Below, one piece after another: positions 764-59,623 of a stretch of DNA of 64,000 nucleotides. The position numbers and the translations under genes are program-made. Below the pieces are notes generated by a model. That model was not told the origin of the DNA. It ran no database searches and saw nothing but the letters and a program-made list of their open reading frames with translations. The first letter of the stretch is position 1, and each line of letters begins with the position of its first letter. This DNA comes from a virus: positions 12,124 to 76,123 of IMG/VR virus record IMGVR_UViG_3300032053_000042. The stretch is one strand, 5' to 3'.

Positions 764-1246
764 CTACTCATACCAACGCATTAACCACTGGTCCGGAGTA
801 CGATCGCCTTTATGATGATTACACATCCAACAGGCTGCTACTAAATTACTTGCTGTCGTGTCACCTCCTAACACTAGTGGCACTACGTGATCGATCACTC
901 TGTAGAATCGTGCGCTGTCTTTAAGGAAAAGTCGACCACAGTAGAAGCACTTGCGCTTTCGAAGTAACTCGCCTAGCTCTTCTCGAGTTAACTTCATTAC
1001 TCGGTTAGCTTGTTTAGTTCGGTACACGAGCCCACTCCATATGGTAGTCACTTTCCCTGTAGGAGTCGCACGATACTTTTTACCTTTGCTAGCAACCGCT
1101 TCAGCTGCTACGCACTTCTTACAAAGGGTCTGCTTCCTATCTTCCGCTATTTCAGAAGGTCCAAAGTCAAGCCTCATCAACTTCTTCTGACAGCGAGGAC
1201 ATATCTTAGATAGATACTCATCCTTCCAAGATCGCTTACATGGCAT
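764..1246 (-). CDS. HNH endonuclease with N-terminal Zn finger
   Basis: CFYCG...IDHVVPLVLGG...SNLVAACWMCNHHKG. Confidence 0.9.
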   Translation of the reverse strand: MPCKRSWKDEYLSKICPRCQKKLMRLDFGPSEIAEDRKQTLCKKCVAAEAVASKGKKYRATPTGKVTTIWSGLVYRTKQANRVMKLTREELGELLRKRKCFYCGRLFLKDSARFYRVIDHVVPLVLGGDTTASNLVAACWMCNHHKGDRTPDQWLMRWYE

Positions 1247-3122
1247 CTAACCAACTCCTTCCTGTAGCTGCGTGCACCTTCAAAGGCGCGTCCAACTTAT
1301 AAGGGCTCACCATAGCTTCAGAGACTAGCTTTGTAGTCGCTTCAACCTCGTCCACAGGTACCTCGAGTAATAGCTCATCATGAACTTGTAGAACCATACG
1401 ACTATGCAGACCCGAACGCTGTAGCTCTCGATCTACAGTAATCATCGCTATTTTCATAATGTCTGCAGCCATTCCTTGGATCGGCATATTTATGGCCGCT
1501 CGCTCTGCCGAGCGACGTAGACCGGGAGGCGTATTAGAGCTCGGTAACAGCTCAGGAAAATAGCGCTTACGCCCGAGCAACGTTTGCACATATCCATGAG
1601 CCCGAGCGTACTGCACTGTGTTACGAAAGTAATCTCGTACTCGAACAAAGCGTGAGAAGTAAGCCTCAATGAATTGTCTTGCCTCCTGTACGCTTCGTTC
1701 TGTACGTTCTGCTAGTCCTTGCTCGGAGATACCGTACATAAGCCCGAAATATATTCGCTTCGCTAGGGTACGCTGTGCATAAGTCACCTCCTTGAGTGGG
1801 ATGTTAAAGAGCTCCGATGCGGTACTAGTATGTACGTCAACTCCTGCAGCAAAGGCAGCTAGTAACTTAGGATCCTGCGTGATGTGCGCCAAAATACGTG
1901 GCTCTATTTGCGTATAATCACAACTCAGTAGTACGTGACCTTCTGGTGCTATAAACGCACCTCTGATTCTACGGCCTAAGTCTGTGCGCGTTGGTACCTG
2001 CTGCAAGTTCGGATGGCTCGATGAAAGCCTTCCGGTACGAGTACCAGTCTGATTTAGTGAAGTATGTACACGCCCTGTGCTAGGATTAACTAGTAAGGGT
2101 AGAGCGTCGATGTAGGTAGTCATCAACTTGGATAGCTGGCGCTGTTCCAGGATAGGTCCAATGATCGAATGCTTACCCTTTAGGAATGTCAGGACTCGGA
2201 TACTCGTCGAGAAGTCGCCACGATATCCCGACAGACCTAGCTCACCAAAGAGCACCTTACCTAACTGCACAGGTGAGTTGATATTAAACTTATGGCCAGC
2301 TATTTGATGGATCTGTTCTTCGGTGTTCTTTAGCTCCTGTCTCAATTCTACTCCCATCGTTCGTAGATAGGGCTGATCAATAATCATCCCATACGTCTCC
2401 ATACGCTTGAGGACCTGTATTAGAGGCATCTCTATCTCATTGAACAGTCTACGTTCTGGCTCCTGCTCGACTAGAGGTTGGAGTGCCTGCATCAAGCGTA
2501 AGGTCATATCGACATCGGCGCAGGCGTAGCGAGCTACTCTAGTGGTACTAATCAGATCCATACCATAGCCAGGACCTAGAAGCTCGTCGATCGATGTCAT
2601 TGTACACCCCAGGCGTCGAAGAGCCTGGTCCTTCAGGCCTAGGTGATGTGCTACTGACTCGACCAGCCATGCAGCGATCATAGTATCGAACACAGGCCCT
2701 CCTAGAGGTAGGCCATGTCTTTCGAGAATTTTCATGTCGAACTTGATATTGTGTCCGACCTTACCGATGCCCTCACTAGCTAGTACAGGCCCAAGACGAG
2801 CCTGTACTAGCTCAAGGGAAAGTTGCTGACCAAGATGTATCAGCGTACTGTGCCCGACTGGTAGATAGAACGCAGTCCCTGGCTCGCGCGATAGGGAGAT
2901 GCCAACTAGCTTATCGATCATGGCATTAGTACCTGTGGTTTCGGTGTCTACAGCTAGCCCCTGTGCTCCACGTAAGTACTCGAGTAGCTGGTCCAAGGCT
3001 TGCTCAGTGTCTACTATTTGGTAGGCACCAAACCCTCGGATGTCGCTTACGTCGTTGGGCCACAAGGGCAGCTGGATATAGCCCTGGCGAGACATCTTAA
3101 GCTTATTAGGTCGCTTGGCCAT
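1236..3122 (-). CDS. polA: DNA polymerase family A (3'-5' exonuclease plus polymerase, no 5' nuclease)
   Basis: Exo I DTETT, HNIKFD, YACAD; motifs TGRLSS, DYTQIEPR, KRIYFGLMYG, QVHDEL; start at MAKRP or 3137. Confidence 0.95.
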   Translation of the reverse strand: MAKRPNKLKMSRQGYIQLPLWPNDVSDIRGFGAYQIVDTEQALDQLLEYLRGAQGLAVDTETTGTNAMIDKLVGISLSREPGTAFYLPVGHSTLIHLGQQLSLELVQARLGPVLASEGIGKVGHNIKFDMKILERHGLPLGGPVFDTMIAAWLVESVAHHLGLKDQALRRLGCTMTSIDELLGPGYGMDLISTTRVARYACADVDMTLRLMQALQPLVEQEPERRLFNEIEMPLIQVLKRMETYGMIIDQPYLRTMGVELRQELKNTEEQIHQIAGHKFNINSPVQLGKVLFGELGLSGYRGDFSTSIRVLTFLKGKHSIIGPILEQRQLSKLMTTYIDALPLLVNPSTGRVHTSLNQTGTRTGRLSSSHPNLQQVPTRTDLGRRIRGAFIAPEGHVLLSCDYTQIEPRILAHITQDPKLLAAFAAGVDVHTSTASELFNIPLKEVTYAQRTLAKRIYFGLMYGISEQGLAERTERSVQEARQFIEAYFSRFVRVRDYFRNTVQYARAHGYVQTLLGRKRYFPELLPSSNTPPGLRRSAERAAINMPIQGMAADIMKIAMITVDRELQRSGLHSRMVLQVHDELLLEVPVDEVEATTKLVSEAMVSPYKLDAPLKVHAATGRSWLDAM

Positions 3123-3123
3123 G

Positions 3124-3447
3124 TTATCGCTCCACATCCGGAACGTAGACTAGATGGCCCTTCGACATATCTATTAGGACGCTACGCGCTGGCCAGCCGT
3201 ATATGAGAATAGCATAGTCACCTTCAATACCATCGACTCCGCCAAACCCTTCATCTAGTACTTGGTATGAAACACCCTCCGGAGCAGATAGAATTATCCT
3301 TCCTTCGCTCTCTGTAGGAGGTGTAGTCGTAACGTGCACTATTCTTCGTTCAGGCCACTTGACTGGCTTACAGCTATCTCCTGGGCGAGGGCTAACATGA
3401 ATGACTCCTGGCAGTTCGTGTAAATACTTATTAAGAGCGTCGCTCAT
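3124..3447 (-). CDS. hypothetical protein
   Basis: ORF with GGAGG RBS, tightly packed between folE and polA. Confidence 0.6.
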   Translation of the reverse strand: MSDALNKYLHELPGVIHVSPRPGDSCKPVKWPERRIVHVTTTPPTESEGRIILSAPEGVSYQVLDEGFGGVDGIEGDYAILIYGWPARSVLIDMSKGHLVYVPDVER

Positions 3448-3450
3448 TCG

Positions 3451-4062
3451 CTACCTCCGTAGGCTGGACTGATGAACGAGACTCATGAACTCGTTACGAA
3501 CTGCTACCTTTGAGAAGCACCCACGAAAGCCACTAGTGACTGTGAGATGCCCTGGACGCTCCACTCCACGAATGGCCATGCACATGTGCTCAGCTTCGAT
3601 CATTACTCCTACGCCATGCGGATGTAGCTGCTCCCACATAAACGTCGCGATCTTAGATGTTAGATCCTCTTGTATGGATAGTCGATGGGCGTAGTGGTCT
3701 ACAATACGAACTATCTTACTGATACCGCACACCGATAGCCACGGTAGATAGCCTACATGAGCATAGCCTACGTACGGTAGGCAGTGGTGTGCACATATCG
3801 ACGCGAACTGGATATGAGTGACAGTTACCATTCCTGGGTCGTCACCGCGTCCTACCGGGAATACTGTAAAGTCGATGGGTTCCTGCTGCTTGGATAGGAA
3901 CTCGATCATAGCGTCCGCAGCTCGCACTGCTGTGTTTTTGCCACTGGGACCGCTACACATAGCGGGAATCTCTTCAATCTTGTATCCCAGAGCGTAGAGA
4001 AAGTCCTCGTAGGCCTTAATAGCTGCACCACGAGCGATACCGAGCGTTGGTTTGATTGTCAT
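3451..4062 (-). CDS. folE: GTP cyclohydrolase I
   Basis: SICAHHCLPYVG, GISKIVR, IQEDLT, EAEHMCMAIRGV Zn-binding motifs. Confidence 0.95.
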   Translation of the reverse strand: MTIKPTLGIARGAAIKAYEDFLYALGYKIEEIPAMCSGPSGKNTAVRAADAMIEFLSKQQEPIDFTVFPVGRGDDPGMVTVTHIQFASICAHHCLPYVGYAHVGYLPWLSVCGISKIVRIVDHYAHRLSIQEDLTSKIATFMWEQLHPHGVGVMIEAEHMCMAIRGVERPGHLTVTSGFRGCFSKVAVRNEFMSLVHQSSLRR

Positions 4063-4532
4063 AAGTATAGCTCCTGTGGTACATCGACCTCCACCCAACA
4101 GTCAGGGGTCTCCGATATTCGTACCATTACAAGTCGAACTGGATGGTAGACTTGCATCCTTGCCCTTAGCATGGTGATAATCTCCTTAGCCATATTCTCA
4201 GCCGTTGGTGACTGAGAATGAAACTCGATGCAGTCGTTTAACAACTTATGATCGTAGTGAGCCTTTACCACCTCGAAGAGCCCCTTTAGTACACTGAAGT
4301 CTATAACCATTCCGTTCTTCAGAGGCCCTGCGACGCATACTTCGATAATGTAGTTGTGTCCATGCACGTTCCCGCAATGTGGATGACCTGGCAAAAAGTG
4401 TGCACAGCTGATAACGAAGCGCCTCCATACTCGTACCTCAGAAGCCTTTGTGTACCTTACTTCTTCCTGTTGCATCATAAGTGTTCCCAGCGAGATTGGT
4501 GTCTTTGAAGTCGACTCTGATACTTGTTCCAT
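4059..4532 (-). CDS. queD: 6-carboxy-5,6,7,8-tetrahydropterin synthase
   Basis: CAHFLP...CGNVHGHNY, GMVIDF, DHKLLND, PTAENMA, ISET. Confidence 0.93.
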   Translation of the reverse strand: MEQVSESTSKTPISLGTLMMQQEEVRYTKASEVRVWRRFVISCAHFLPGHPHCGNVHGHNYIIEVCVAGPLKNGMVIDFSVLKGLFEVVKAHYDHKLLNDCIEFHSQSPTAENMAKEIITMLRARMQVYHPVRLVMVRISETPDCWVEVDVPQELYL

Positions 4533-4544
4533 GTTTCTCCTTTC

Positions 4545-5171
4545 CTACCTTATTCCAATGAACTTATGTAACTGGACGCTCAAACGCCAGTTCTTCTTGA
4601 TACACTCCTCGTAGCACAGCTTAGTAGCCGAGGAATCTTGGCTCTCGGGCTGCAAGCAGATCGTTGCGTGTCCACGAAGAATGTGCTGGAGGTGGTCAAT
4701 AAGAAACTGATTTACCAGGTCGAGATCCTCCTGAAAGCCTACGACAAACTTCAGCTCATCCGCCGTAAGTAAATTCGGGATAAGTATCCTGTTCCCGCCA
4801 GGAACATTAAGCTTAGGCGAGATGCAAACCCAGTCTATCCCACGAGGAATGGGAAGAGTACCGTTCGTTTCCAGAGCGGTGTTCCTCCCGATTGCATTTA
4901 GCTCGCTACACAGCTCGTCGAGAGGTTGCATGGTTGGCTCTCCTCCCGTGATCATCACCCACTGGATACCTGGAAACTCTTTAACCTTCTCCACGATGGT
5001 TTCCACGTCCATTGCTACTCCACCCTTAGACCAAGTATACTTGGTATCGCAGAAACTACAGGTCAAGTTACACCCTTGCATTCGTATGATAACCATAGGA
5101 ATGCCTGTATTACACCCCTCTCCCTGGACGGCACTGTAAATCTCGTTAATCTGATAGTAGAAACTAGGCAT
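4545..5171 (-). CDS. queE: 7-carboxy-7-deazaguanine synthase (radical SAM)
   Basis: EIYSAVQGEG, GCNLTCSFCDT, ITGGEP, LETNG, SPK, WRLSVQLHK. Confidence 0.95.
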   Translation of the reverse strand: MPSFYYQINEIYSAVQGEGCNTGIPMVIIRMQGCNLTCSFCDTKYTWSKGGVAMDVETIVEKVKEFPGIQWVMITGGEPTMQPLDELCSELNAIGRNTALETNGTLPIPRGIDWVCISPKLNVPGGNRILIPNLLTADELKFVVGFQEDLDLVNQFLIDHLQHILRGHATICLQPESQDSSATKLCYEECIKKNWRLSVQLHKFIGIR

Positions 5172-24810: not shown

Positions 24811-25080
24811 TTACCTCCTTTCTTCGTGGGTTTCTGAGCGCGCTTCGATAGCGATGGCCAGTAGCTCGTTGGTCGAGAAGTCGTGAGGAGCTACTTCTAG
24901 TATGGCCATATGTACGACTATTTCTTCGAGTACTCCTTTAGGGGAGTTACGAAAGCCGAGATGTAGATGCTGGTACTCCTTGTAGTAGGCAGCATAGAAC
25001 GCGTCGAACTCGACTGCGTACGTGGCAAGGATGCTACGTGTGGCGGTCCACGGCTTTCTAGGAACCTGTGGTAAGTTCAC
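24811..25080 (-). CDS. hypothetical protein
   Basis: GTGA coupling with the upstream gene, GAGGAG RBS. Confidence 0.55.
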   Translation of the reverse strand: MNLPQVPRKPWTATRSILATYAVEFDAFYAAYYKEYQHLHLGFRNSPKGVLEEIVVHMAILEVAPHDFSTNELLAIAIEARSETHEERR

Positions 25081-25427
25081 TTAACTCCTCGGTAGCCCAG
25101 GCTCTGTACGACAAGAGCAGCCTGTGTAATAGCAAGCTGCTCGACGTTCAGTATCTTCTCTTTCGACTTAGCTGTAGTCGTACGCCACCCACCACAGTAG
25201 AACATGTTACGGATGCACCCGGTTTTGAGGTCTAGTAAGCGTACGCGGTCCCAACCGTAGCTGTGCCTGTATGTACCATCCTCTTGTCGCGTACTCCACT
25301 TCCGGATAGCCACAAACTTGTAGCCTCGTTTCGTAGCGCGCTGGATGTACTTCTCCAGTTCTGCTTGTAGGTCCTTTTGGTACTGCTCACCTTCGGACCA
25401 CCCTTCATGACGCTGTAGCTTACTCAT
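25077..25427 (-). CDS. early paralogue family member 1 (unknown function)
   Basis: RHEGW...LEKYIQRATKRG...DRVRLLD...FYCGGW. Confidence 0.7.
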   Translation of the reverse strand: MSKLQRHEGWSEGEQYQKDLQAELEKYIQRATKRGYKFVAIRKWSTRQEDGTYRHSYGWDRVRLLDLKTGCIRNMFYCGGWRTTTAKSKEKILNVEQLAITQAALVVQSLGYRGVK

Positions 25428-25540
25428 GCTGCTCCTTTTCTGGTCTCTGGTTTGTGAGAACACGACACATAGTAGGAAAGAGATGGGTCACATTCATGTA
25501 CGCTCCTTTCTAATACTCACTATCCAATCGTTACAAAGTT

Positions 25541-25569
25541 AGTATACATTATTTTGGGAAAAAAGTCCA
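25541..25569 (-). promoter_or_regulatory. sigma70-type early promoter P3
   Basis: TGGACT-17 bp-TATACT, spacer ending AAATAATG. Confidence 0.7.
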
Positions 25570-26132
25570 CCAACCTCGGCATGTTCCGGTCAGCGTGGTT
25601 TTCTTGCAGAGGAACAAACTATAGCGCTGGTTCCAGCCGGGCCTTTTCTTGGTACCACAAACTCTGGTAACTGTTCCACCGGGGCGGATTGTGGGTACGT
25701 GAGATCTAAGCGCTATAGACTCTTGAGCTGGTTCCAGCGGGACCAGAAAGTGGGCACGACAAACTCAAGCGCTGGTTCCACCCGGACCTGAATCTTGTCA
25801 CCTGGAAAGTTGGTACCTACGCAAGGGATCCGAGGGGCGAGGTGAGCGTTATGGAAGCCCTAGGCTATCTGGGAGTATAGGTCGAGACGCCACAATAAAG
25901 TGCACTAGCTACTCTAGGGCATCGTTTTGTACCAAGCGATCTAACTATGTTGCTAGTTCCAGCGGCGGGAGATCCGGTCACCACTTGCCAAGGCGCTGGT
26001 ACCTGCCGGTACGGGACTTTGGTCCTACTTTTAGGAATGTTGAAAAAGTGGTACCAACGAGGAGGCGGTTTTGGTACCAATAACGCCAATTGGATGGTAC
26101 CAACTTGGAAGCGAGGAAGGGTCCGGTAGCAG

Positions 26133-26164
26133 AAGGCCGCCTAGGTCAATTCCTAGGCGACCTT
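26133..26164 (-). terminator. hairpin, probable terminator
   Basis: AAGGTCGCCTAGGAATTGACCTAGGCGGCCTT just after the stop of 26183-26611. Confidence 0.55.
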
Positions 26165-26182
26165 AGAAGTGGTTAGTCGTTA

Positions 26183-26611
26183 CTACTTAACCTCTTCTGG
26201 AGGTATACATTCGATGCAAGTACCCTTGGTGCAACCTTCGCAAGGTTCGTCTGGATTAGGGCCAATCGCTCCTAGGATCTTCTTTGACCAGGCCCTCGCT
26301 TCGTCGTGCCGTTTCTCCAGGTACTTATGAAGCTTGACTAATCCTTCAACGACTATAACTTCGGGTTGCTTCCGAACCAGGTTCCCGTAGTAGTTCTGGA
26401 CAATCTGTTGGCAGTAGCGAAGTATTCGTACGTTCTCGGGTGTGGGAATACTAAGCGCCTTGTCCATGGCTTCCTCTTGTTCTCGTACGTAGGTATAGAA
26501 CTGCTTCATTGCTTCTGTTCCTGATAGCTGCTCCACAAATAGCTCGATCAATTGTTGGAGCTCATGCTGCATGGCCGATATTCTTGTCGTTTCGCTCATT
26601 CCGGTTTCCAC
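26183..26611 (-). CDS. hypothetical helical protein with C-terminal Cys cluster
   Basis: AAGGAG RBS; CEGCTKGTCIEC. Confidence 0.65.
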   Translation of the reverse strand: METGMSETTRISAMQHELQQLIELFVEQLSGTEAMKQFYTYVREQEEAMDKALSIPTPENVRILRYCQQIVQNYYGNLVRKQPEVIVVEGLVKLHKYLEKRHDEARAWSKKILGAIGPNPDEPCEGCTKGTCIECIPPEEVK

Positions 26612-26671
26612 GTTCGTTTGCTCCTTTTGTTTGGCCTGGGCGACTTTTGGTCACCCAGGCTTTGGTTAAGG

Positions 26672-27037
26672 CTAGTTAGCCGCTGGGAACATCTTATGGA
26701 TCTCTTCTTCTAAGGTTCCTGGAAATAGTGCTTCGGCACCTCCTTCGTGCCTACGAACTAGGCCTGCCATTCTAGATGCGTCTGTTGCTGGTAGGTCCTT
26801 TCCGGCTTTGCTCCATCCTCCGCAGTAGAAAAGGTTGCGCTGGATTCCGGTCTTGCAATCCAAAAGGCGCACTCGATTGGTGTGGTGCGGACGATAGTGG
26901 TCATAAGAAATGGTATTCCAAGTCTTAACCACTACAAAGTACCAACCTCGTTTACTTGCACGCAGAATATACTTGTCCAGTTCTGGCTGCAAGTTTTCCT
27001 TGAATACTCCTACAAACCATCCTTCTTCGCGCTCCAT
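26672..27037 (-). CDS. early paralogue family member 2
   Basis: REEGW...LDKYILRASKRG...NRVRLLD...FYCGGW. Confidence 0.7.
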   Translation of the reverse strand: MEREEGWFVGVFKENLQPELDKYILRASKRGWYFVVVKTWNTISYDHYRPHHTNRVRLLDCKTGIQRNLFYCGGWSKAGKDLPATDASRMAGLVRRHEGGAEALFPGTLEEEIHKMFPAAN

Positions 27038-27148
27038 GTTCGTTTGCTCCTTTGTTCTAGTGCACACAATGTTTGGGACATGATCTTGGAACCAATTTAA
27101 TAGTGTTATTAACTTATTGGCTTATCCTTTCTTAACTATTATATAGGT

Positions 27149-27177
27149 ATTATACATTATTTCCGATAAAAAGTCAA
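27149..27177 (-). promoter_or_regulatory. sigma70-type early promoter P4
   Basis: TTGACT-17 bp-TATAAT. Confidence 0.8.
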
Positions 27178-27410
27178 CGAACCTGTGCTAGTTCTGGACA
27201 GAGTAAAATATGATCAGATCAACAAACTCTGGTAGCTGTTCCAGAGGGTCATGGATTTAGAACCAAGTAACAGCGTAACAATTTATAATGGATATAGAAG
27301 TTGATACCACTTGCCATATCGTTGGTACCAACACATGGAGAAGTTGTTGGCGAGTAGTAACAGGATTTGATTCTTATATTTTGCTGAGCGCGTGCCGACA
27401 CGTTGTTACG

Positions 27411-27439
27411 TTGACTTTTAGTTTGAAATAATGTATACT
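27411..27439 (+). promoter_or_regulatory. sigma70-type early promoter P5 (divergent from P4)
   Basis: TTGACT-17 bp-TATACT, spacer ending AAATAATG. Confidence 0.8.
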
Positions 27440-27580
27440 ATATTTAGATTAACATGAAGTTAATCAACTTAATAGTGTTAAGAAAGAGAGTGACAATAAG
27501 TTTAGTAACAAAACATTTTCTCAAGTCATACAGTTCTTGTAGAGTCGAAAGAGTCACAACAGAACAGAGGAGAGCACAAA

Positions 27581-27901
27581 ATGCAGTTCGACAAAAAGAT
27601 CTTAACAGAGTTACAAGAGAAGTCAATAAAGTTCTATCAGCTGACAAAAGAGCAGATAGTACAGTGGTCAACTAAAGAAGCAGGTAGCTGGATTGCACAT
27701 CCTGAAACAGTAGTTGCTGCTTATGCTGCTGAGAGAAATAATGTTGACTTCATCGTTATTGCACAGTTCGATGATAATGCTTTCATGGTCTTCACTGAAG
27801 GTGTCAACATTCAAGAAGAACTCTGTTATGAAGAGTACGATGAGTTAGTTGCACTGAATCAGTGGTACGTAGTAGTTAATGAGTACTTTCTCAGTAACTA
27901 A
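27581..27901 (+). CDS. small acidic protein, single-gene early unit (candidate DNA mimic / anti-defence)
   Basis: GAGGAG RBS; 18 D/E vs 7 K/R, no basic residue after position 52; own promoter and terminator. Confidence 0.7.
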   Translation: MQFDKKILTELQEKSIKFYQLTKEQIVQWSTKEAGSWIAHPETVVAAYAAERNNVDFIVIAQFDDNAFMVFTEGVNIQEELCYEEYDELVALNQWYVVVNEYFLSN

Positions 27902-27924
27902 GTAACTGTAGAGCAGAGTTAAGA

Positions 27925-27966
27925 AGAGTACAGAGTTGAGCAATCGATTCTGTACTCTCTTTATGT
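27925..27966 (+). terminator. probable intrinsic terminator
   Basis: AGAGTACAGA...TCTGTACTCT stem then CTTTATGT. Confidence 0.6.
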
Positions 27967-28575
27967 CTGTTACTAATTGCCATCGAGCGATAGATTCGTG
28001 AGCTGGTTCCAGCGAGAAATTATCTTGACAATTGAAAAGATGTTAATCGATATTGAAAGATTGAAACTCTAGTAGCTGTAGAGGTTGTTGGTGACAATTG
28101 CCAAGCAACCTGTGGGACTGATAACTCTGATCCTGGTTCCAGCGACGGAAGTTCTTTAGGACTCGGAATCGTGCTGATTCAAAAAGTGGTTCCAGCGCAG
28201 GGTGTCTGAGTTGACTTGATTTCGATGGTAATCGAACTAGATATCTAGATAGATTGAGACCAGCGATGATCGACTGGTCCCAATGAGTATAATAGTACTA
28301 GCTGATCTTGGCTGGTTGGCAACCTGTGGGACAATAAACTATGGAGCTGGTTCCAGTGATGATAAAGAAGTTGTTGAGATGATTATGAGGGTGGTTCCAG
28401 TGATGAGTGAAATAGTGTTAATAGAGATGTTAGTGATTGTGAGGGTGGTTCCAGAGGGTATTGTGATGTTGCGCGTCGTCGAAAAAACAACAAAAAACAA
28501 TAACTAGCTAAACCCGACCAAACAAAAACCTAAAATAAAATAAAAGAATATAAAAAATGTGAAAAATCTTTGATC

Positions 28576-28760
28576 GGATTACTTCGAGGATACTTTGAGT
28601 AACTGGATTACTTCGAGGATACTTCGAGTAACTGGATTACTTCGAGGATACTTCGAGTAACTGGATTACTTCGAGGATACTTCGAGTAACTGGATTACTT
28701 CGAGGATACTTCGAGTAACTGGATTACTTCGAGGATACTTCAAGTAATTGGGTTACTTGT
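28576..28760. repeat. tandem array of 29-bp units (6 copies plus a partial)
   Basis: GGATTACTTCGAGGATACTTCGAGTAACT at 28576, 28605, 28634, 28663, 28692, 28721; no spacers. Confidence 0.95.
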
Positions 28761-28771
28761 AAAACTCCCTA

Positions 28772-28800
28772 TTGACAATTTTTTTGATTGGGTATATAAT
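28772..28800 (+). promoter_or_regulatory. perfect consensus sigma70 promoter
   Basis: TTGACA-17 bp-TATAAT. Confidence 0.85.
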
Positions 28801-28923
28801 GATCGTGTCGGCCAGGATAGCAAAAAAAGATTGGGGTGAAAAAAATATAATAGACCGTAAAGCAATTAAAAAAGCGTATATGGCGCACAAAAACCGTGTC
28901 TAAACAGTAAAAGAAGGGATAAA

Positions 28924-29352
28924 ATGTCAGCAAACATCAAGAAGGCGTTGGAAAATGCTAAATCAACGCAATCTAGCACAGCAAAAACGCCTGCGGTTGA
29001 CGTAACAAGGTTTGTTACCATCAAACAAGCATCGGTATTACTTGACAGAAGTATATATCGGACAAGGCAATTATATTGGGACGGACATTTCCCATCATCA
29101 GTAAAGCCAGAAAAAGAAGTCTATTTATTAAAAATAGAAGTCTTGGCCTGGAAAAAGATAATGGACGGTCGAGCGGTCAAAAACGACACGCTCGATGATA
29201 GCAGGATGGGCAAGCGAGTAGTATTTGCTTGCGAAACGGTAAATTTGTTGGTAACACAAGATACATCGCTAGGCAAGGAACTCCAAAACATAATAGCGAG
29301 TATTTTGGTAGGATATATAAAAGAAGGTCAAAGTATGATAAAAGAAAAGTAA
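28924..29352 (+). CDS. Xis/MerR-like HTH protein
   Basis: FVTIKQASVLLDRSIYRTRQLYWDG; similar to 23070-23546. Confidence 0.65.
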   Translation: MSANIKKALENAKSTQSSTAKTPAVDVTRFVTIKQASVLLDRSIYRTRQLYWDGHFPSSVKPEKEVYLLKIEVLAWKKIMDGRAVKNDTLDDSRMGKRVVFACETVNLLVTQDTSLGKELQNIIASILVGYIKEGQSMIKEK

Positions 29353-29441
29353 TAACAATAAATAAATAGAGCTAGGTCGGCAGGATTACGCCTAGCTCTC
29401 ATAATATAGAGTCAAAGATAATAGAATATGGGAGAAGGATA

Positions 29442-29654
29442 ATGTACACGTTAAAAGAGGCCTCAGAAGTAACTGGTATCAGTATCTATCGGATTAGAGC
29501 AATGGTATTGTCAGGAACGATAACAGGCGCAGTAAAAGTAGGTAATACCATAATGCTTACGGAAAAGACGGTCAGATACATATACAACGTACAAAAAGCG
29601 GTTCGGATATACAATCAAGTAATATCCGATGGTAAGCAAGGGAGAAACCAATGA
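29442..29654 (+). CDS. HTH_17-like DNA-binding protein
   Basis: MYTLKEASEVTGISIYRIRAMVLSGTITGAVKVG. Confidence 0.7.
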   Translation: MYTLKEASEVTGISIYRIRAMVLSGTITGAVKVGNTIMLTEKTVRYIYNVQKAVRIYNQVISDGKQGRNQ

Positions 29655-29962
29655 ATATCGCAACATATACCCAAACCTATAGAAATAATAGGAATGGATG
29701 GGTAGGAACGGAATTAGACCGTATAGAGCTTTGGAGTAACTTGATGCAATATGTAGAAAAAGCAGCCAAACGTGGAGTATGCTATACGGTAGGTATGCAA
29801 TGGCACGTACACACGGGAGAAGGTACATATAGACCTATAACCTATAATTATGTAGAATTGTTGGCAATGTGGGGTGAAGGTGTAGTAAACCGTATTATAC
29901 TACGCTGTTACATATATATTATAGGTGATATAGTAGTAAAATGGAGTAGAATATATAGATAA
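29651..29962 (+). CDS. early paralogue family member 3
   Basis: RNGW...LMQYVEKAAKRG...WH...NYVELL. Confidence 0.6.
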   Translation: MNIATYTQTYRNNRNGWVGTELDRIELWSNLMQYVEKAAKRGVCYTVGMQWHVHTGEGTYRPITYNYVELLAMWGEGVVNRIILRCYIYIIGDIVVKWSRIYR

Positions 29963-30062
29963 TATAGAATAGATAGATAAACAGAGCGTAGTATAATCAG
30001 CGATACTACGCTCTCATAGAATAGGTTGATGTAGTAATCAGTAGTAATAAACAAGGAGAAAA

Positions 30063-30407
30063 GTGAAAGTTGTAAAAGAGAACTCAAAGCGTCATAACGG
30101 ATGGGATGCGGATGTAGAATATGGGAAAGAACTTGTATGTAAACTCATATTATACATAGATAGAGCAAAAAACAGGGGTTATACCTACTCTATTATAAGC
30201 AAATGGCATACACACGTGAAACGTCAAGTACGTGGAATAGAGTATAGAGGAATTTGGCATTATACTACTAGTGTTGACAAAGAGGTAATTATCTATAACA
30301 GAGTAGAATTAGTTGACAGGTGTACAAAAAAACACGTTAAACTGTTTTTCTATACAGGCGGTAGCAATAATACAGGTAATATGACAGGCAGATGGAAAAG
30401 ACAATAA
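30063..30407 (+). CDS. early paralogue family member 4
   Basis: RHNGW...LILYIDRAKNRG...WH...NRVELVD...FYTGG. Confidence 0.65.
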   Translation: MKVVKENSKRHNGWDADVEYGKELVCKLILYIDRAKNRGYTYSIISKWHTHVKRQVRGIEYRGIWHYTTSVDKEVIIYNRVELVDRCTKKHVKLFFYTGGSNNTGNMTGRWKRQ

Positions 30408-31001
30408 AATAATAATAAATAGGTAAACAAATAGAGCGTAGTATAATCAGCGATACTACGCTCTCATATTATCTAACAATAATAGAATAAGATACAAAAC
30501 CGCAGTTAAAATGACGGCCGTCGTCTATAAAAAGATAATTAAATATAATTAAATATAATTAAAATATAAATAAGAAAAAAGAAAGCAGAAAAAGTGTTGG
30601 GTTGGGGAAAAACAAACATCAAAGATAGTGGGAGTATGCACATTATCTTTTCAATGCTACCAATCACATCAGACTACCGAACTTTTACACAACTTTACCA
30701 TACTATCCATCTACATGCAACCCTCACCCTGGAATACGGCCCACCATATCTACGTTACCTAATTTTCCAGCAATGTTTAGGTCGTGTACGACGCTAGTAC
30801 CATTCTAGGAGTGGGCCCATACGAGTTTGAAATTGTCTGAAATTGCTGAGAAAACAGGATAGAAGAAACGTGCGTCCCCCCGGAATTTGGCTTTTCTTTT
30901 GTGTTGGTTTGATGTACGGTATCAGTGTAAATATACTAAAACGTGCCGAGATTTAGGAGGTCGTCTGTGCCTACTCGTATCCATCGAACCAAGCTTGCCT
31001 A

Positions 31002-31952
31002 ATGCTAGACATCGCCACACTTAGGCAGCGTCAGAGCTTACCTTTGGAAGCAAAGGTCATGATGTCTCTACACAAGATCAGGGAATGGTACGACCGCTGG
31101 CGTGGTCAAGTGTACGTTGCGTACAGCGGCGGTAAGGACAGCACAGTACTACTTCACCTAGTACGACAGTTTTACCCAGAAGTTCCTGCAGTGTTCAACA
31201 ATACGGGCCTAGAGTACCCAGAAATCTTGGAACAGGTACGTGGCACAGAAAGCGTTGTATGGCTAAGGCCGAAGTACTCATTTAAGGAGTGTTGCACCCG
31301 ATGGGGTTTTCCAGCAGTAAGCAAAGAGGTATCTGACAAGGTACAACGTATCAGGAACACGAAGGACGAGCAGCTAAGGCAGCTATGGATGTACGGCAGG
31401 AATGACCAGGGAAGAACGACGATATTACGATTAAGCGATAAATGGCATTTTCTATTGCAGGCCCCGTTTAAGATAAGTCCTAATTGCTGTATACATCTAA
31501 AGAAGAATCCAGCTAAGCATTATGAGGGAGAAACCGGCTTGTGGCCGATGTTAGGTACACTAGCAGAGGAAAGCCTAGGACGCACAACGGAATACCTCCG
31601 CTTTGGTTGTAATAATTATACTAATAGCCGACCTAAAAGCACTCCGTTAGGCTTCTGGACAGAGCAGGATATACTACAATATATTACACGGGAAGGGCTA
31701 AAGATTGCAGCAGTTTATGGCGACATAGTAGAGACCGATGGCCGTCTTCGTTGCATAGGCGAAGACAGAACTGGATGTATAGCGTGTCCCTTTGGTTGCC
31801 ACGCTGGAGTACAAAACAGTTTTCAACGAATGGCCATAACTAAGCCGAAGTTACTTAACTGGATACTCGATGACCTAAGTATGCGACAAGTTCTTGACTT
31901 TACTGGAATTCCCTACACGGCACAGGATGTAGGATCTGAAGCTACATACTAG
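31002..31952 (+). CDS. PAPS-reductase-family (PP-loop, Fe-S) protein
   Basis: YSGGKDS PP-loop, NTGLEYPE, CCIHLKK, PLGFWTEQD, RTGCIACPF. Confidence 0.88.
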   Translation: MLDIATLRQRQSLPLEAKVMMSLHKIREWYDRWRGQVYVAYSGGKDSTVLLHLVRQFYPEVPAVFNNTGLEYPEILEQVRGTESVVWLRPKYSFKECCTRWGFPAVSKEVSDKVQRIRNTKDEQLRQLWMYGRNDQGRTTILRLSDKWHFLLQAPFKISPNCCIHLKKNPAKHYEGETGLWPMLGTLAEESLGRTTEYLRFGCNNYTNSRPKSTPLGFWTEQDILQYITREGLKIAAVYGDIVETDGRLRCIGEDRTGCIACPFGCHAGVQNSFQRMAITKPKLLNWILDDLSMRQVLDFTGIPYTAQDVGSEATY

Positions 31953-31967
31953 AGGTAACGTGTTATT

Positions 31968-32462
31968 ATGTCATTCATCAACACCCGCACACAGTGGATC
32001 GTATTAGACGAGACGCAGTTCCAGCAGCTGCTGGGAGGGAGCGTTATAATGCCTGCATTTAATACGCGACAGCAACAAGTAGTTCTAGATAGTATCCAAT
32101 TCACGCAGCTACAGGCGGTTCTAGCGTCCACGGCGGCCGCAGTTATAGCTGCGGCTGCACCCAAGCTACTAAGCGTCGAGACCGGAATCATAGCCAGTCC
32201 TATACAGTCGCAGGCAGGGGCAACGCAGTTAAATGATTATTCTACAGTACATGAAATATCGGTGTGTGCAACTGTTGGTGATGCCGTTAGACTCCCTCCT
32301 GCAGTTGCCGGTAAAATGGTCATTATCTGCAACAAAGGCGTAGAACAAGCGCAGGTTTGGCCTGCGATCGGAGACCAGCTTGACCCTAACAGTCCAAACG
32401 TGGCATCTAATTTTGTGCAATTTATTGCCGTAGACGATACACAGTGGTATTCGAGCAAATAA
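31968..32462 (+). CDS. hypothetical protein, possibly virion-associated
   Basis: internal repeat NTRxQxxVLDxxQFxQL; C-terminal AVRLPPAVAGKMVIICN module like that in 63679-63999. Confidence 0.55.
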   Translation: MSFINTRTQWIVLDETQFQQLLGGSVIMPAFNTRQQQVVLDSIQFTQLQAVLASTAAAVIAAAAPKLLSVETGIIASPIQSQAGATQLNDYSTVHEISVCATVGDAVRLPPAVAGKMVIICNKGVEQAQVWPAIGDQLDPNSPNVASNFVQFIAVDDTQWYSSK

Positions 32463-34029: not shown

Positions 34030-35592
34030 ATGCCTAAAGTATTCATAGCGAATCCTACACAAGAGCCTTTTCTCCTAAGCGATGCACGCTTTTTGGGCTT
34101 CTTCGGTGGAATTGGCAGTGGTAAGACCGCAGCAGGGGCGATAAAAGCAATACAAAAGTTACGAGACGGCGACGGAATTATCGTAGGTCCGGACTACCCT
34201 CACTTTTGTAAATCGACCTGGGTGGAGGTTGCGAAATGGCTTCCATGGTCCCGGGTAACGAACAGAAATCTTCAGCATCCGCACACCAGTGAGAAGGTAC
34301 TGAAGATTCAGACGGCACAGGGTGAGCGTAGGATCTATTACGGAGGGATGGACGACGCCGCGGCCTGGGCTGGTCCTAGCGTCAATTTTGTTTGGGCCGA
34401 TGAGTTTCGACGCAAGCCCACTCGCCAACATTTCGATGTGCTCGCTGGACGTATTCGCGTCGGGCATAACCCACAGTTATGGTTAACAACTACACCGAAA
34501 GCCACGTTACGTGGGCAACAGCACTGGCTGCACGAGGTTTTTGTCCAGAAGAAGTTCGATCCGGAAGTTCTAAAGGCTTTTGCAGGTGCCAATCAGAAGT
34601 TAGTTGAATACTTTACGGCTCCTACTAGCGAGAATGCTGAACACCTAGACTCATTGTACTTGGCGAGCCTGAAAGGTCTATACTCAGGGAAGTACGCAGA
34701 CCAGGAGCTCGGGGGCGAATTTATTGACTTCGAAGGTCTAGTCTTTGCCAACTTCGACGAGGATAATGGGAACGTCAGCGTAGCTGCAGACTACACACCT
34801 GGAGTGGCTATCGAATGGGCGGTCGATAATGGTTTTACGGAGGGCCATCCTCTAGTAATCCTGTTAGCCCAAACGATTCCACCGTTCGTTAACATATTCG
34901 CAGAGTACGTAGCAGTACGTGAACAACAGGAAGTGTGTATCGCTAAGGCTCTCCAGATGGGTTATCCACTCCCATCTGTAGCAAGAGTGGACTCGTCAGC
35001 ACCAGATTTGATTCAACGCCTGTGGGATCGAGGTATTGAGACCGCACAGGGCTCGCACGACGTAGATGCAGGTATCTCTCATTTGCGATCGTTTATTCGG
35101 GATGGTAAGGACCAGGTCCATATTCGCTTTCATCCGCGTTGCACGTTCTCGATTGCAGAGATCCAAGCGTATTCGTACCCGGATGCCGTGGAATCAGGAA
35201 TTTCGATATCGTCGGACAAGGCTGCGAGGCCGATGAAGGAATCGGACAATGCAGCAGATGCACTTCGTTACTTGGTTTGGCCTAAGCAACTGGCGACGTT
35301 AGAGGCTTCGGCCGCCAGAGGCGATGTAATTCGTATACAAACTGGGAGGCCTAGTACACAGGGCCAGCAGCAACAAGTCCCGGCGCGTGGGTCTGTACCC
35401 TCGTTAACGCCGGTGACGTTGCAGGAGCAGGGCAGACCTGCGGCCACAGGGACGCAACCTGATCCTACTCCTACAGAACCACTGCGAGCACCTGTGGAAC
35501 GACGTACCGGCTGGTCAATTTTCGGCGGACCACGGAAGCCGAAGCCTCAGCGGATCAAACGCGACGCAAGTCGTCTTCCGCCCGGATGGTAA
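34030..35592 (+). CDS. terL: terminase large subunit
   Basis: GGIGSGKT Walker A, VWADE Walker B, LTTTP, AVDNG, DNAADALRY. Confidence 0.93.
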   Translation: MPKVFIANPTQEPFLLSDARFLGFFGGIGSGKTAAGAIKAIQKLRDGDGIIVGPDYPHFCKSTWVEVAKWLPWSRVTNRNLQHPHTSEKVLKIQTAQGERRIYYGGMDDAAAWAGPSVNFVWADEFRRKPTRQHFDVLAGRIRVGHNPQLWLTTTPKATLRGQQHWLHEVFVQKKFDPEVLKAFAGANQKLVEYFTAPTSENAEHLDSLYLASLKGLYSGKYADQELGGEFIDFEGLVFANFDEDNGNVSVAADYTPGVAIEWAVDNGFTEGHPLVILLAQTIPPFVNIFAEYVAVREQQEVCIAKALQMGYPLPSVARVDSSAPDLIQRLWDRGIETAQGSHDVDAGISHLRSFIRDGKDQVHIRFHPRCTFSIAEIQAYSYPDAVESGISISSDKAARPMKESDNAADALRYLVWPKQLATLEASAARGDVIRIQTGRPSTQGQQQQVPARGSVPSLTPVTLQEQGRPAATGTQPDPTPTEPLRAPVERRTGWSIFGGPRKPKPQRIKRDASRLPPGW

Positions 35593-47016: not shown

Positions 47017-49656
47017 ATGAGTTTGAAGGTCTTTATGCATCCTGAGCCAGATACGAAGCCTGAGGCCATAGGTAACGGAATACAAATGGTCGTCCAGGCG
47101 ATGTATAAGCATTTACCTACTATGGACATTGAGCTGGTGTCGTCACTAGACCATGCCGACCTTTTCGCGTCACACGTAGACTCGCCCTTTAGAGTGCCAG
47201 ACGTACTACACACACATGGACTCTATCCCACAGGTGAGATGGAGATGGGCGGGTGGGCTTTTGAAGTTAATGCCAGGGTTATCACGAACGCTAGACAGGC
47301 TCTGGCCGTAACGGCGCCTTCAACGTTCGTGGCGGATATTTTTGCTCGTAATCTAGGCTTTAGACCAAAGGTAATAGGTCACGGAATCGAGCCAGGCGAA
47401 TGGCCTGAGCCTTCTCGACGTAACGAGCTGACAGTTCTATTCAATAAGAACCGCGCAGGGGACGTATGCTCAGCTGAACCTGTTGAGCGTCTAGCACAGC
47501 TACGCCCGAACGTAAAGTTCATGTCGACGTTCGGTACTAAGCGTCGTAACCTTGAAATCACAGGTGCAATGCCACATCCTGCAATGAAAGAGTTGTTATA
47601 CAAGTGCGGGATATATTATGCGCCAACCAAGGAGACCTACGGTATCGGCATTCTAGAGGCCATGGCTGCGGGAATGCCTGTACTAACGTGGGACTGGGGC
47701 AACAATCCTGAGTTAGTACGACATATGGTCGATGGATACATCGTCGAGCCCTACGACTATACTGGTACCGCTAAAGGCCTTGACTGGTGTATTGAGCACT
47801 TCAGCGAGCTTACGGGGCATGCTCGAGTACAAGCCTTAACACACTCTTGGGAGGGACCGATAGCTTCATACGCTGCCCTTTATCGACAAGCGTATGCTCG
47901 CAAGCTTGCTAAGGGCCCGTTAGTATCAGTTGTGATTCCTTGTTACAATTATGGTAAGTACGTAGCCGAAGCCATACAGTCCGTGAAAGATCAGACCCTT
48001 ACAGATTGGGAGTGCATCGTAGTAGACGATGGCTCAACTGACGACTCTTTTGAAGTAGCCAAGAAGGCCACGCAGGACGATCCTAGGTTCACAGTAATAA
48101 CGCAGTTGAATGCAAAGGTAGCAAATACACGCAATCGTGGGGCCACTCGTGCTCAAGGTAAGTACCTGTGCTTCCTGGACGCCGACGACTATATGCTACC
48201 AAGGTGCTTAGAGATCCTAACAGCCGCCTTACTTAAGGACCGAACCGCTGGTATTGCCTATGGTAGGCTCAAGGAGCTCACAGATAAGGGACTAGAGGCT
48301 GGCGTCTCAAGCTGGCCTAACGACTTTAACATGACGCAGCAGCTCGCTCAACGGAATCAAGTACCGTCGTGCTGCTTGATTGAGACTAGAGCGTTCTTTC
48401 GAGCTGGTGGCTTTCGTTCTCACACTATACCAGCAGAGGATGCCGAGCTGTGGACTAGAATTCCTCTTCTAGGCTTTAACGTGATCAAGGCTACTGACGA
48501 GGCTACGTATGTTTATCGAAAGCATGGTACAAACGCTACACTAGTTCATCCAGGGATGCCTCCATGGACGGCTTGGCTTCCTGCAGCTCATAAGGGAGTT
48601 CAGCCTATTGCTAGTGTGGCTCCAGCTGCGAAGCAATCGCACCCCGTGTTCAACTACGACAGACCTTTAGTAAGCTTCGTCACACCTGTGGGACCTGGAC
48701 ACGAGGCTCTTGTAGGTGATGCAATTGAGTCGGTTTGCGCACAGATAGACCCTAGGTGGGAGCATATCATTATCGACGACACAGAGGGAGGTAGTCTACA
48801 GGAGTATGGCGTTATTCCATATGCTATGAGATATCCTCACCTTAAGTGGCTACGTAGTTCAAAGCTTCACAATGTTAGTGCGGCACGTAACGCTGGTGCT
48901 AGGATGGCTAGAGGTAGGTTCCTGTGCTTCCTAGACGCTGACGACATGTTATTCAAGGAGTTCGTACGCGATACTCTACCAATGACTATGGAGCGAGCTA
49001 AGCCTCTAGTTTACACCGACTGGATTGAGCTTCCTGAGGGTACAGTACACCAGGCGGAGAACTGGGATCCAAAGGCGCTTCAGCAACGATCTATAATGGC
49101 TGTAACCTTTCTGCACGAGAAGAGCGCCTTTACGCTCGTAGGTGGGTTCGACGAGTCCTTGGACATGTGGGAGGACTGGGATTACACAGTACGGCTTTCC
49201 TTCCTAGGCTATCAAGGTATACACGTACCCAAGCCTTTGTTCAGCTATAGCTACAATACTGGGAAGAGGCGAGAGGAAAGTCTGGAGAAGGCCAAGCAAG
49301 TAGTTAAGAGCGACGCTCGAACACCTGTGGAGACTCAGGTACCAGCACAAGTTATAGCACCACCGCCTGTGGAGGATCCTCGATTCGCTATACATAAGGC
49401 GATACGACCACCTGCGGTTCCTCGGGCACAGGTGCAAGAGAACATGACGATTATCCAGCCTAGGTTGACTCGGCCTGGGCAAGCTAATAACGTAGGAGTA
49501 CGGTATATTGGAACAGTAGCAGACACTAGGCTCTATCGAGCTCCGAGTGGGAGGAGATATCGATTCGGTTCCGGTGTACACCAGGTACAGATGGTAATGG
49601 CCGAGGATGTTGCGCATTTTAAGGCTATGTCTGGCCTATTCGAACTTGTATCATAG
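47017..49656 (+). CDS. multidomain glycosyltransferase GT4-GT2-GT2 with small C-terminal domain
   Basis: ETYGIGILEAMAAG (GT4); VSVVIPCYN/DDGS/FLDADD; second VSFVTP/FLDADD/EDWD; Pro-rich linker and ~55-aa tail domain. Confidence 0.9.
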   Translation: MSLKVFMHPEPDTKPEAIGNGIQMVVQAMYKHLPTMDIELVSSLDHADLFASHVDSPFRVPDVLHTHGLYPTGEMEMGGWAFEVNARVITNARQALAVTAPSTFVADIFARNLGFRPKVIGHGIEPGEWPEPSRRNELTVLFNKNRAGDVCSAEPVERLAQLRPNVKFMSTFGTKRRNLEITGAMPHPAMKELLYKCGIYYAPTKETYGIGILEAMAAGMPVLTWDWGNNPELVRHMVDGYIVEPYDYTGTAKGLDWCIEHFSELTGHARVQALTHSWEGPIASYAALYRQAYARKLAKGPLVSVVIPCYNYGKYVAEAIQSVKDQTLTDWECIVVDDGSTDDSFEVAKKATQDDPRFTVITQLNAKVANTRNRGATRAQGKYLCFLDADDYMLPRCLEILTAALLKDRTAGIAYGRLKELTDKGLEAGVSSWPNDFNMTQQLAQRNQVPSCCLIETRAFFRAGGFRSHTIPAEDAELWTRIPLLGFNVIKATDEATYVYRKHGTNATLVHPGMPPWTAWLPAAHKGVQPIASVAPAAKQSHPVFNYDRPLVSFVTPVGPGHEALVGDAIESVCAQIDPRWEHIIIDDTEGGSLQEYGVIPYAMRYPHLKWLRSSKLHNVSAARNAGARMARGRFLCFLDADDMLFKEFVRDTLPMTMERAKPLVYTDWIELPEGTVHQAENWDPKALQQRSIMAVTFLHEKSAFTLVGGFDESLDMWEDWDYTVRLSFLGYQGIHVPKPLFSYSYNTGKRREESLEKAKQVVKSDARTPVETQVPAQVIAPPPVEDPRFAIHKAIRPPAVPRAQVQENMTIIQPRLTRPGQANNVGVRYIGTVADTRLYRAPSGRRYRFGSGVHQVQMVMAEDVAHFKAMSGLFELVS

Positions 49657-58789: not shown

Positions 58790-59623
58790 ATGACAGAGCG
58801 ATCATGGCCTTGGGACGACACCTTTGCAGGCGACGCTCTTGCTATGGCTCCATATCTGGCCGACGACTGGACCATAATGCTCGATGATATACTAGGCCGT
58901 GGAGGCTCCTATGGAGTATTCCTAGGTGCAGGTAACGGTCTAGTTGTTACGACTAGTCCTGGAAATACCTCTCCGTGTATCATCGACACAGGTGCGGCAT
59001 TCGTAGCAGGCCAGTACTATCGTAATACAGCTCCTGTGAGTATTGCAATTCCCTACGCGTATACCGCCATAAGATACGATCGCATCGTGGTACGACGTAC
59101 CTGGAGTACTAAGCAGGCTCGTCTAACTCGACTTCCTGGAATAGAGGGAGCGGGGGTTCCTGCTTTAGTACAAGATTGGGGTAACATATACGACGTGCCA
59201 GTAGCTATTATAACGGCTATGAATCTTTATCTCGGGGGAGGTGTTAACTCCACGTACGCTACAGATGATAGAAAAGATCGAGGCTGGCCTGATCTCATAC
59301 ATCGGCAAGGAGGCGATCCAACTGATTGGAACGTAGCCGGGACGACTAACTATAGAGTGCTCAAGACTCGTATCCAGTGCGGGAACAAAATATGCGTTTG
59401 GGCTAACGGTCTGTTCACTGTGACCTTTCCTACGCCTTTCTCAGCTGTACCACTGGTATTCCTAACTACAGACTGCGGTACGAGTATAACAGCTTACATC
59501 GACACCTGTACCGCTAACGGCTTTACTGGCGGGTTTGTGTGGCACTTTTCAAACCCCGTGACTCCGCACGCTATAGGAGCAGGCTATAATACGACTAGTT
59601 GGCTTGCTATAGGACCAGAGTAA
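58790..59623 (+). CDS. minor tail protein, tandem paralogue of 57971-58777
   Basis: RYDRIVVR, YDVPVA, IQCG...VTFPTPF...WLAIG. Confidence 0.7.
   Translation: MTERSWPWDDTFAGDALAMAPYLADDWTIMLDDILGRGGSYGVFLGAGNGLVVTTSPGNTSPCIIDTGAAFVAGQYYRNTAPVSIAIPYAYTAIRYDRIVVRRTWSTKQARLTRLPGIEGAGVPALVQDWGNIYDVPVAIITAMNLYLGGGVNSTYATDDRKDRGWPDLIHRQGGDPTDWNVAGTTNYRVLKTRIQCGNKICVWANGLFTVTFPTPFSAVPLVFLTTDCGTSITAYIDTCTANGFTGGFVWHFSNPVTPHAIGAGYNTTSWLAIGPE

Follow-up and report, generated by a model that had tools for sequence, protein, structure and literature searches.

A putative early transcription unit of an uncultured phage purged of GG/CC dinucleotides

Phages with DpdA systems, such as CAjan and iggy, carry genes for deazaguanine precursors, and their known enzymes read G-containing words of 2-3 nt. 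The motifs are GA and GGC for the CAjan DpdA (PMC7544227) and GA for that of iggy (PMC10484667); neither paper mentions motif-free zones. Phages also avoid restriction sites and PAMs, with selection removing short duplex words that are read by host nucleases (PMC12174588, PMC4246573). In the known cases, including depletion of the CC PAM, this avoidance is weak and genome-wide (e.g. CC 8.27% versus 8.74%). Morons and accessory hotspots of tailed phages consist of self-contained promoter-gene-terminator units, with alternative cargo in sister strains. Counter-defence genes can also occupy the leading region of a genome, as do T7 gene 0.3 (Ocr) and those of the T5 first-step-transfer region. Neither of these regions is known to ban a dinucleotide.

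The locus described here, an island of DNA almost devoid of GG and CC, resembles each of these in part. As in the DpdA phages, deazaguanine-precursor genes are present and the banned word is on the scale of those that the known enzymes read, but no DpdA or QueC was found in this phage. As in restriction-site and PAM avoidance, a short duplex word has been removed by selection; here, however, the purge is total and covers one 584-nt unit, while the word is normal elsewhere. The island shares with T7 gene 0.3 and the T5 first-step-transfer region a small acidic protein, a strong host-type promoter and a position at the head of an early arm. For its product, however, no similarity to Ocr or ArdA was found, either in sequence or in a structure search with a weak AF2 model, and its charge density is much lower. 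Like a moron, it is a self-contained unit with alternative cargo in sister strains, but its word ban also covers the shared promoter and terminator. We found no description of such local dinucleotide bans in the papers searched. The island is a new form of motif avoidance, strongly selected and outside any described system.

The stretch analysed (64,000 nt, hereafter the window) comes from a 76,123-bp IMG/VR virus record, an uncultured phage from sediment metagenomes with an estimated completeness of 91%. Its leftward arm encodes PolA; FolE, QueD and QueE; a primase-like protein; an exonuclease; a DUF669 protein; a Sak4-like ATPase; a ligase; and a Cas4-like nuclease. The gene order of this replication arm is syntenic with that of the Queuovirinae phage 9g. 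The rightward arm leads from small early genes through a TerS-like gene to TerL (34030-35592) and the structural genes. The arms diverge at ~27.2-27.4 kb, at a pair of near-consensus sigma-70-type promoters that forms an inverted repeat. The island lies 4.6 kb upstream of the TerS-like gene, and the divergent promoter marks it as what would be the first unit of the rightward arm. The features of the locus are as follows.

27149-27177, minus strand: divergent partner promoter, TTGACT-17-TATAAT, predicted to feed the leftward early genes; outside the purge
27323-27330, no strand assigned: last TGGTACCA box before the island; such boxes fill the neighbouring spacers, and none lies inside the island
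27396-27979, both strands alike: GG/CC-purged island, 584 nt with 8 GG/CC steps; flanking steps at 27395 and 27980
27411-27439, plus strand: sigma-70-type promoter, TTGACT-17-TATACT, of a family of extended early promoters; no GG/CC
27446-27580, plus strand: 5' leader of ~135 nt, from the predicted start site; its sole GG is in the Shine-Dalgarno GGAG at 27569-27572
27581-27901, plus strand: acidic ORFan, 106 aa plus stop; GG/CC count at the theoretical minimum, 7
27925-27968, plus strand: intrinsic terminator, a 15-pair stem AGAGTACAGAG...TCTGTACTCT (27925-27958) and then CTTTATGTCT, a T-rich tail
28004-28011, plus strand: first TGGTTCCA box after the island

Between 27405 and 27979 there are 7 GG and 1 CC, against ~38 expected from base composition (GG 25.9, CC 12.0). 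The GG at 27569 belongs to the RBS (AGAGGAGAG). Three more lie in Trp codons (TGG; 27666, 27690 and 27864), two in Gly codons (GGT; 27683 and 27800) and one at 27787, across a Met-Val junction (ATG-GTC); the CC is in a Pro codon (CCT, 27701). Both the number and the positions of these eight steps agree exactly with those given by an earlier, sequence-only reading of this DNA, which had proposed that selection on both strands purged GG/CC from a single-gene early unit. That reading had also stated that the flanking DNA uses GG/CC freely, as it does: outside the island, observed/expected (O/E) ratios are 0.8-1.1 (1.0-1.1 at 26900-27400 and 0.8-1.0 beyond 28100).

When 575-nt windows were slid across the 64 kb, the O/E ratio was 0.21 in the island, compared to a median of 0.87, a 1st percentile of 0.57, and 0.56 in the next-lowest region. 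The four longest GG/CC-free gaps in the genome (174, 116, 97 and 86 nt; 76 kb scanned) are all inside the island, and among ten dinucleotide classes scanned genome-wide, GG/CC in the island showed the strongest local depletion. In 100,000 mononucleotide shuffles of the island, the GG/CC count was never below 17. The 263 non-coding nucleotides contain 1 GG and 0 CC, versus 10.3 and 4.7 expected. The GC content of the island (0.36) is like that of the early DNA on either side (0.38 and 0.38), and hence the purge is not an imported composition; the word is odd, the composition ordinary. An enrichment of AGAGT in the island is accounted for by its dinucleotide content. Elsewhere in the genome, GG/CC steps tend to lie at more even intervals than under a local Markov-1 model (coefficient of variation, CV, 0.97 versus 1.08; z -7), with the same sign but smaller values in the relatives and 9g (z -1.3 to -5.7). 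Gaps of >40 nt between steps number 78 outside the island, versus 120 under Markov-1.

The ORF allows a stricter analysis. Its observed GG/CC count, 7, equals the minimum possible for its amino-acid sequence, as obtained by dynamic programming. We drew 20,000 sequences under each of four synonymous controls. Mean counts were 24.0 +/- 3.2 with the codon usage of the genome, 17.2 with that of low-GC neighbours, 20.7 with third-position-matched sampling, and 14.1 (minimum 8) when the gene's own synonymous codons were permuted, the most conservative of the four. In every control, 0/20,000 draws reached 7. Considered separately and relative to the neighbours' codon usage, both strands are depleted (GG 6 versus 11.0, P 0.003; CC 1 versus 5.9, P 0.005). 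We also computed an avoidable ratio, defined as (observed - minimum)/(expected - minimum), which is 0.00 for the island ORF. Among 106-codon windows taken from genes of at least 120 aa in this genome (405 windows), it has a median of 0.88 and does not fall below a minimum of 0.30; across five genomes, the ratio is <=0.1 in 1/2010 windows. Glycine and proline together number 3 in the product, versus 13.8 expected from the phage proteome (P 0.0003), while three tryptophans are kept.

Collectively, the shuffles, the codon controls and the non-coding DNA rule out chance, base composition and amino-acid content, and so bear out the earlier claim of selection on both strands. Two of the checks suggested along with that claim, sliding-window O/E and codon-shuffled controls, placed the island at the extreme, and the shuffles were never equally low. 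The purge is a real feature with sharp limits at those of the unit, and it extends to both strands, to non-coding DNA and to all synonymous choices. The best explanation is that natural selection rewrote the unit to the fewest GG:CC steps compatible with its RBS and protein.

We looked for analogues in other genomes. Whole genomes of four relatives lack FolE and show no codon-level GG/CC purge, and in phage 9g, whose deazaguanine system is complete, none of the dinucleotide classes has a purged island. Terminase relatives in IMG/VR are all distant (45-49% identity, none above 49%), and the JGI terminase contigs, at 94%, 83% and 64% identity, end short of the slot. One segment of a relative, G003 31417-32050, has the same O/E ratio as the island (0.21), but it was rejected as an analogue; the genome is 39% GC, and the segment encodes a coiled coil within a tape-measure-like protein of 958 aa. 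This segment has 1 Gly/Pro/Trp in 210 aa, and 7 avoidable GG/CC sites remain in it, versus none in the island ORF. O/E alone can thus mislead, and it is the codon-minimum test that separates the two. The GG/CC minima of three further relatives (G001, L004 and G005) are alternating purine-pyrimidine tracts, and that of G002 is a mild depletion only.

Such tracts occur in distant relatives at L003:8600-9230, L004:2350-2900 and G005 58800-59100 (L085:18800-19100). They are 300-700 nt in length, GC-rich and Z-DNA-like (CGCGCG/TGTGTG), with an alternation index of 0.70-0.77, compared to about 0.5 for the genomes; the maximum in the window is 0.62, and no such tract is present there. Those of L003 and L004 are ~1 kb upstream of the terminase. 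Their GG/CC O/E ratios are 0.2-0.3, under a rule unlike that of the island.

By its signals, the island reads as a complete monocistronic early transcription unit, composed of promoter, leader, 106-aa ORF and terminator. The same framing had been put forward in the sequence-only reading, and it stands: a near-consensus sigma-70-type promoter and an intrinsic terminator bracket the ORF. The limits of the island match those of one transcript within about 50 nt. Two paralogous copies of the promoter, at 27179-27137 and 25570-25535 (both on the minus strand), contain 2 and 3 GG/CC, respectively, compared to 0 in the island copy. The leader has modest structure (MFE -27.6 kcal/mol, z -2.6), and the terminator stem contains zero GG/CC. 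Rfam gave no match within 25000-31500.

Several other elements are seen in this part of the genome. The box TGGTWCCA has 30 exact matches in the window, versus 3.3 expected (both strands). Most are clustered in non-coding spacers of the early region (25628-28453) and bracket the island (27323, 28004), and the TGGTTCCA form is nearly always on the plus strand. At 28547-28778, a 29-bp unit (GGATTACTTCGAGGATACTTCGAGTAACT) is repeated in ~6-8 tandem copies, which end at a perfect promoter, TTGACA-17-TATAAT (28772-28800), for an HTH-like gene (28924-29352); this array may be an iteron or operator array. A 60-nt block with a perfect bidirectional terminator hairpin (AGAGCGTAGTAT...ATACTACGCTCT), likewise GG/CC-free, occurs twice, 450 nt apart (29983-30014 and 30433-30464). 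Four diverged paralogues, at 25080-25427 and 26675-27037 on the minus strand and 29651-29959 and 30063-30404 on the plus strand, lie in separate early units on both arms. They share 22-46% identity and the pattern GW...L..Y..A..RG...W...V.L, and mid-GC and AT-rich versions exist. Farther away, the genome has two family-A DNA polymerase genes (L002:8844-11162 and window 1236-3137, both on the minus strand), one of them fused to an N-terminal uracil-DNA-glycosylase-superfamily domain. An 879-aa protein of the structural module (window 47017-49656) has glycosyltransferase domains of GT4 type and two of GT2 type.

Contigs from four other sediment runs were aligned to 26600-28600. No variant was found at 27215-28016 in any of these runs. 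The right flank (28017-28183) differs by ~3.5%, a minor form differs at 27186-27218, and the left flank is near-invariant, with 2 differences in 562 nt. As the left flank is almost as invariant as the unit, this pattern reflects mosaicism and is no proof of a special constraint on the unit. In runs X3 and X4, the leader is common up to 27580 and is then followed by a different ORF (MKLIIVHEAE...; ATG AAG CTG ATC ATT GTT CAC GAA GCA GAA...). A contig of run X6 enters the terminator at 27924 from different DNA, and further contigs carry only the promoter. These junctions suggest that the unit sits in a swappable slot. Both features by which morons and accessory cassettes are recognized, an own promoter and terminator and cargo that varies between related genomes, were found here. 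Two 30-nt glimpses of alternative cargo are both GG/CC-free, while 5/6 junction sequences outside the slot have GG/CC. This is suggestive of purging in the alternative cargo as well (roughly P 0.001-0.02, from two 30-nt stretches). Exact-pattern scans of IMG/VR for the start of the alternative ORF, the promoter family and the leader gave no match.

The product of the ORF has 18 D+E (17%) and 7 K+R, the count of acidic and basic residues noted previously, with a pI of 4.26 and a net charge of -11; it contains two Gly, one Pro and three Trp. An identical protein is encoded on two other contigs. Homologues were found neither in Pfam, PHROGs, phage records (tblastn) or IMG/VR, nor among 5.8 billion clustered proteins and 1.84 billion representatives. 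ESM Atlas holds the same sequence, with a model (pTM 0.77) that supports a real folded protein; its structural neighbours (TM 0.43-0.64) are immunity-type proteins, DUF6678 and PepSY-like proteins, which are leads only. A single-sequence AF2 model is weak (pLDDT 57). When this weak model was used to search solved structures, the best Foldseek match had E 0.37 and the best VIA-align match Z 4.1, and no DNA mimic was listed.

The sequence-only reading had taken the product for a candidate anti-CRISPR or anti-restriction DNA mimic, an idea for which our searches gave no support. There is no homology match to a known Acr family in Pfam, PHROGs, the 5.8 billion clusters, the 1.84 billion representatives or phage records. 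The operon lacks an Aca-type HTH gene, as the unit is monocistronic with its own terminator and the closest HTH gene (28924-29352) is served by a promoter of its own, at 28772. No homologue was found, nor a solved-structure match to the weak AF2 model, and the acidity is moderate; that of Ocr and ArdA is well above the 17% D+E seen here. The labels anti-CRISPR, anti-restriction and DNA mimic are guesses. A role in early host takeover or in counter-defence is probable for this product of what would be an exchangeable accessory slot.

Three deazaguanine genes were identified.

3451-4098, minus strand: FolE (PF01227, 5.7e-47)
4059-4532, minus strand: QueD (PF01242, 2.8e-31)
4545-5171, minus strand: QueE (Radical_SAM, 2.5e-15)

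No DpdA/TGT was detected with PF01702 in the 91%-complete genome, whereas 14/14 control genomes matched. PADLOC found no DpdA among 10 candidate proteins, and the DpdA of 9g, used as a query, had no match in the genome. Two DpdA candidates, an 827-aa protein (solved-structure search) and a 316-aa protein (tblastn), also gave no match. Because the genome is 91% complete and DpdAs are divergent, these searches do not prove absence. For QueC, PF06508 matched only the PP-loop of a PAPS-reductase-like gene, at 10 bits, below the cut-off. Hence the earlier suggestion that the phage has its own deazaguanine system has half a basis: FolE, QueD and QueE were detected, DpdA/TGT and QueC were not. The phage might produce a 7-carboxy-7-deazaguanine-type base or rely on an unrecognised transglycosylase; alternatively, the gene could be in the missing part. 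The PAPS-reductase-like PP-loop protein is encoded at 31002-31952, directly upstream of the packaging genes; its best defence-library matches are BrxP (1.3e-15), SspD and DndC, and it could be part of a second DNA-modification route.

What reads the word? The ban is equally strict for GG and CC and seems to extend to the promoter, which is not transcribed; for these reasons, we infer a reader that acts on double-stranded DNA. Our preferred reading, plausible although we hold it with some reserve, is that this duplex reader of GG/CC is tied to the phage's own guanine modification. The phage would make a 7-deazaguanine precursor through FolE, QueD and QueE, and the likeliest reader would be its own motif-specific guanine modification, or a factor that distinguishes modified from unmodified G. 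The unit would then be the sole part of the genome almost without modified sites and would behave the same whatever the modification state of the DNA. In favor of this reading, the known DpdA words are 2-3 nt in length (PMC7544227, PMC10484667), FolE, QueD and QueE are present, and the left arm is syntenic with that of 9g. FolE and the purge also go together, although in a comparison of one genome with both against four relatives with neither. A number of observations weigh on the other side. The enzyme that would insert the base into DNA is hypothetical, and a GG-specific one all the more so, because no DpdA/TGT or QueC was detected. We know of no GG-specific DpdA. Phage 9g has a full deazaguanine system and is without a purged island. 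Other early units, with promoters of the same family and, at 28772, a perfect consensus promoter, use GG/CC freely, and hence early expression alone does not demand a purge. Moreover, eight GG/CC sites remain, so the unit is not fully invisible.

A broader version of this modification reading, which we consider possible but rather doubtful, is that some tailed phages keep a dedicated "word-free" slot. Any gene inserted between the common promoter, leader and terminator of this slot would be rewritten without the 2-bp word of the phage's base-modification system or of its reader, and the slot would serve as a modification-blind boot cassette.

The strongest rival explanation places the reader in the host, and we judge it unlikely, though well worth weighing. 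A counter-defence gene that is expressed first would lack GG/CC as the host reads this word as a CRISPR PAM or within restriction sites, leaving few targets or roadblocks on the gene's template before the protein acts. CC is the PAM of type I-F systems and NGG that of type II-A. A strand-symmetric purge is expected of a duplex reader; the strong early promoter at the head of the rightward arm is likewise in line with this explanation, and a small acidic product in an exchangeable slot is typical of accessory or counter-defence loci. However, a cut is fatal wherever it falls, and GG/CC abounds outside the island. Since the word is common elsewhere, protecting 584 nt would help only with stepwise DNA entry or cooperative infection. 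Restriction-type palindromes are not avoided genome-wide, with GGCC present 303 times, CCGG 129 times and CCWGG 206 times, and neither sequence searches nor structure searches with the weak AF2 model matched the protein to Acr, Ard or Ocr.

We regard it as improbable that the word is read in RNA, with the transcript kept free of GG/CC, for instance as protection from a defence that modifies or cleaves RNA, or from a shut-off nuclease of the phage that acts at GG sites (e.g. Shine-Dalgarno-like GGAG). The match between the island and a single transcript, to within about 50 nt, fits this idea, as does the finding that the RBS has the only GG apart from the codon-forced sites. Yet this would take independent bans on two RNA words, GG and CC, each of which is at its minimum. 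Besides, GG/CC is also absent from the ~50 nt before the inferred start, promoter spacer included, unlike in the paralogous promoters, and the leader shows no selection for lack of structure (z -2.6).

Equally hard to credit is an explanation in which this phage has no reader at all, the cassette having been recently imported from a ban-carrying donor, or an unrelated sweep having passed through the population, such that the pattern is a relic of the past. That the gene is an ORFan and its slot exchangeable is compatible with such a history, and the invariance of 27215-28016 in four runs, versus 3.5% difference in the right flank, fits a recent transfer or sweep; but the left flank is almost equally invariant (2/562 nt). 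The promoter comes from the local paralogous family and yet is purged, and GC content is equal to that of the neighbours. The exact theoretical minimum and the GG/CC-free terminator would also need ongoing or very recent selection somewhere. Finally, a composition artefact, in which a Gly/Pro/Trp-poor protein in AT-rich DNA loses GG/CC with no selection on the word, does occur (e.g. G003 31417-32050) but is refuted here by the codon controls, none of which reaches the observed count, by the avoidable ratio of 0.00 with 3 Trp, 2 Gly and 1 Pro kept, and by the purge of non-coding DNA.

As a signature of selection, the full ban of one dinucleotide in one transcription unit is both very strong and very local. 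By implication, some factor in infected cells reads a 2-bp DNA word and must be evaded by one early gene. Should this factor belong to the host, both the counter-defence gene and the way of evasion marked by the unit would be new. Should it instead be the guanine modification of the phage, target motifs could be predicted from metagenomes by way of purged units, which would also mark genes that are needed regardless of modification state. Were the word-free slot to prove true, the banned word would reveal the target motif of the enzyme from sequence alone.
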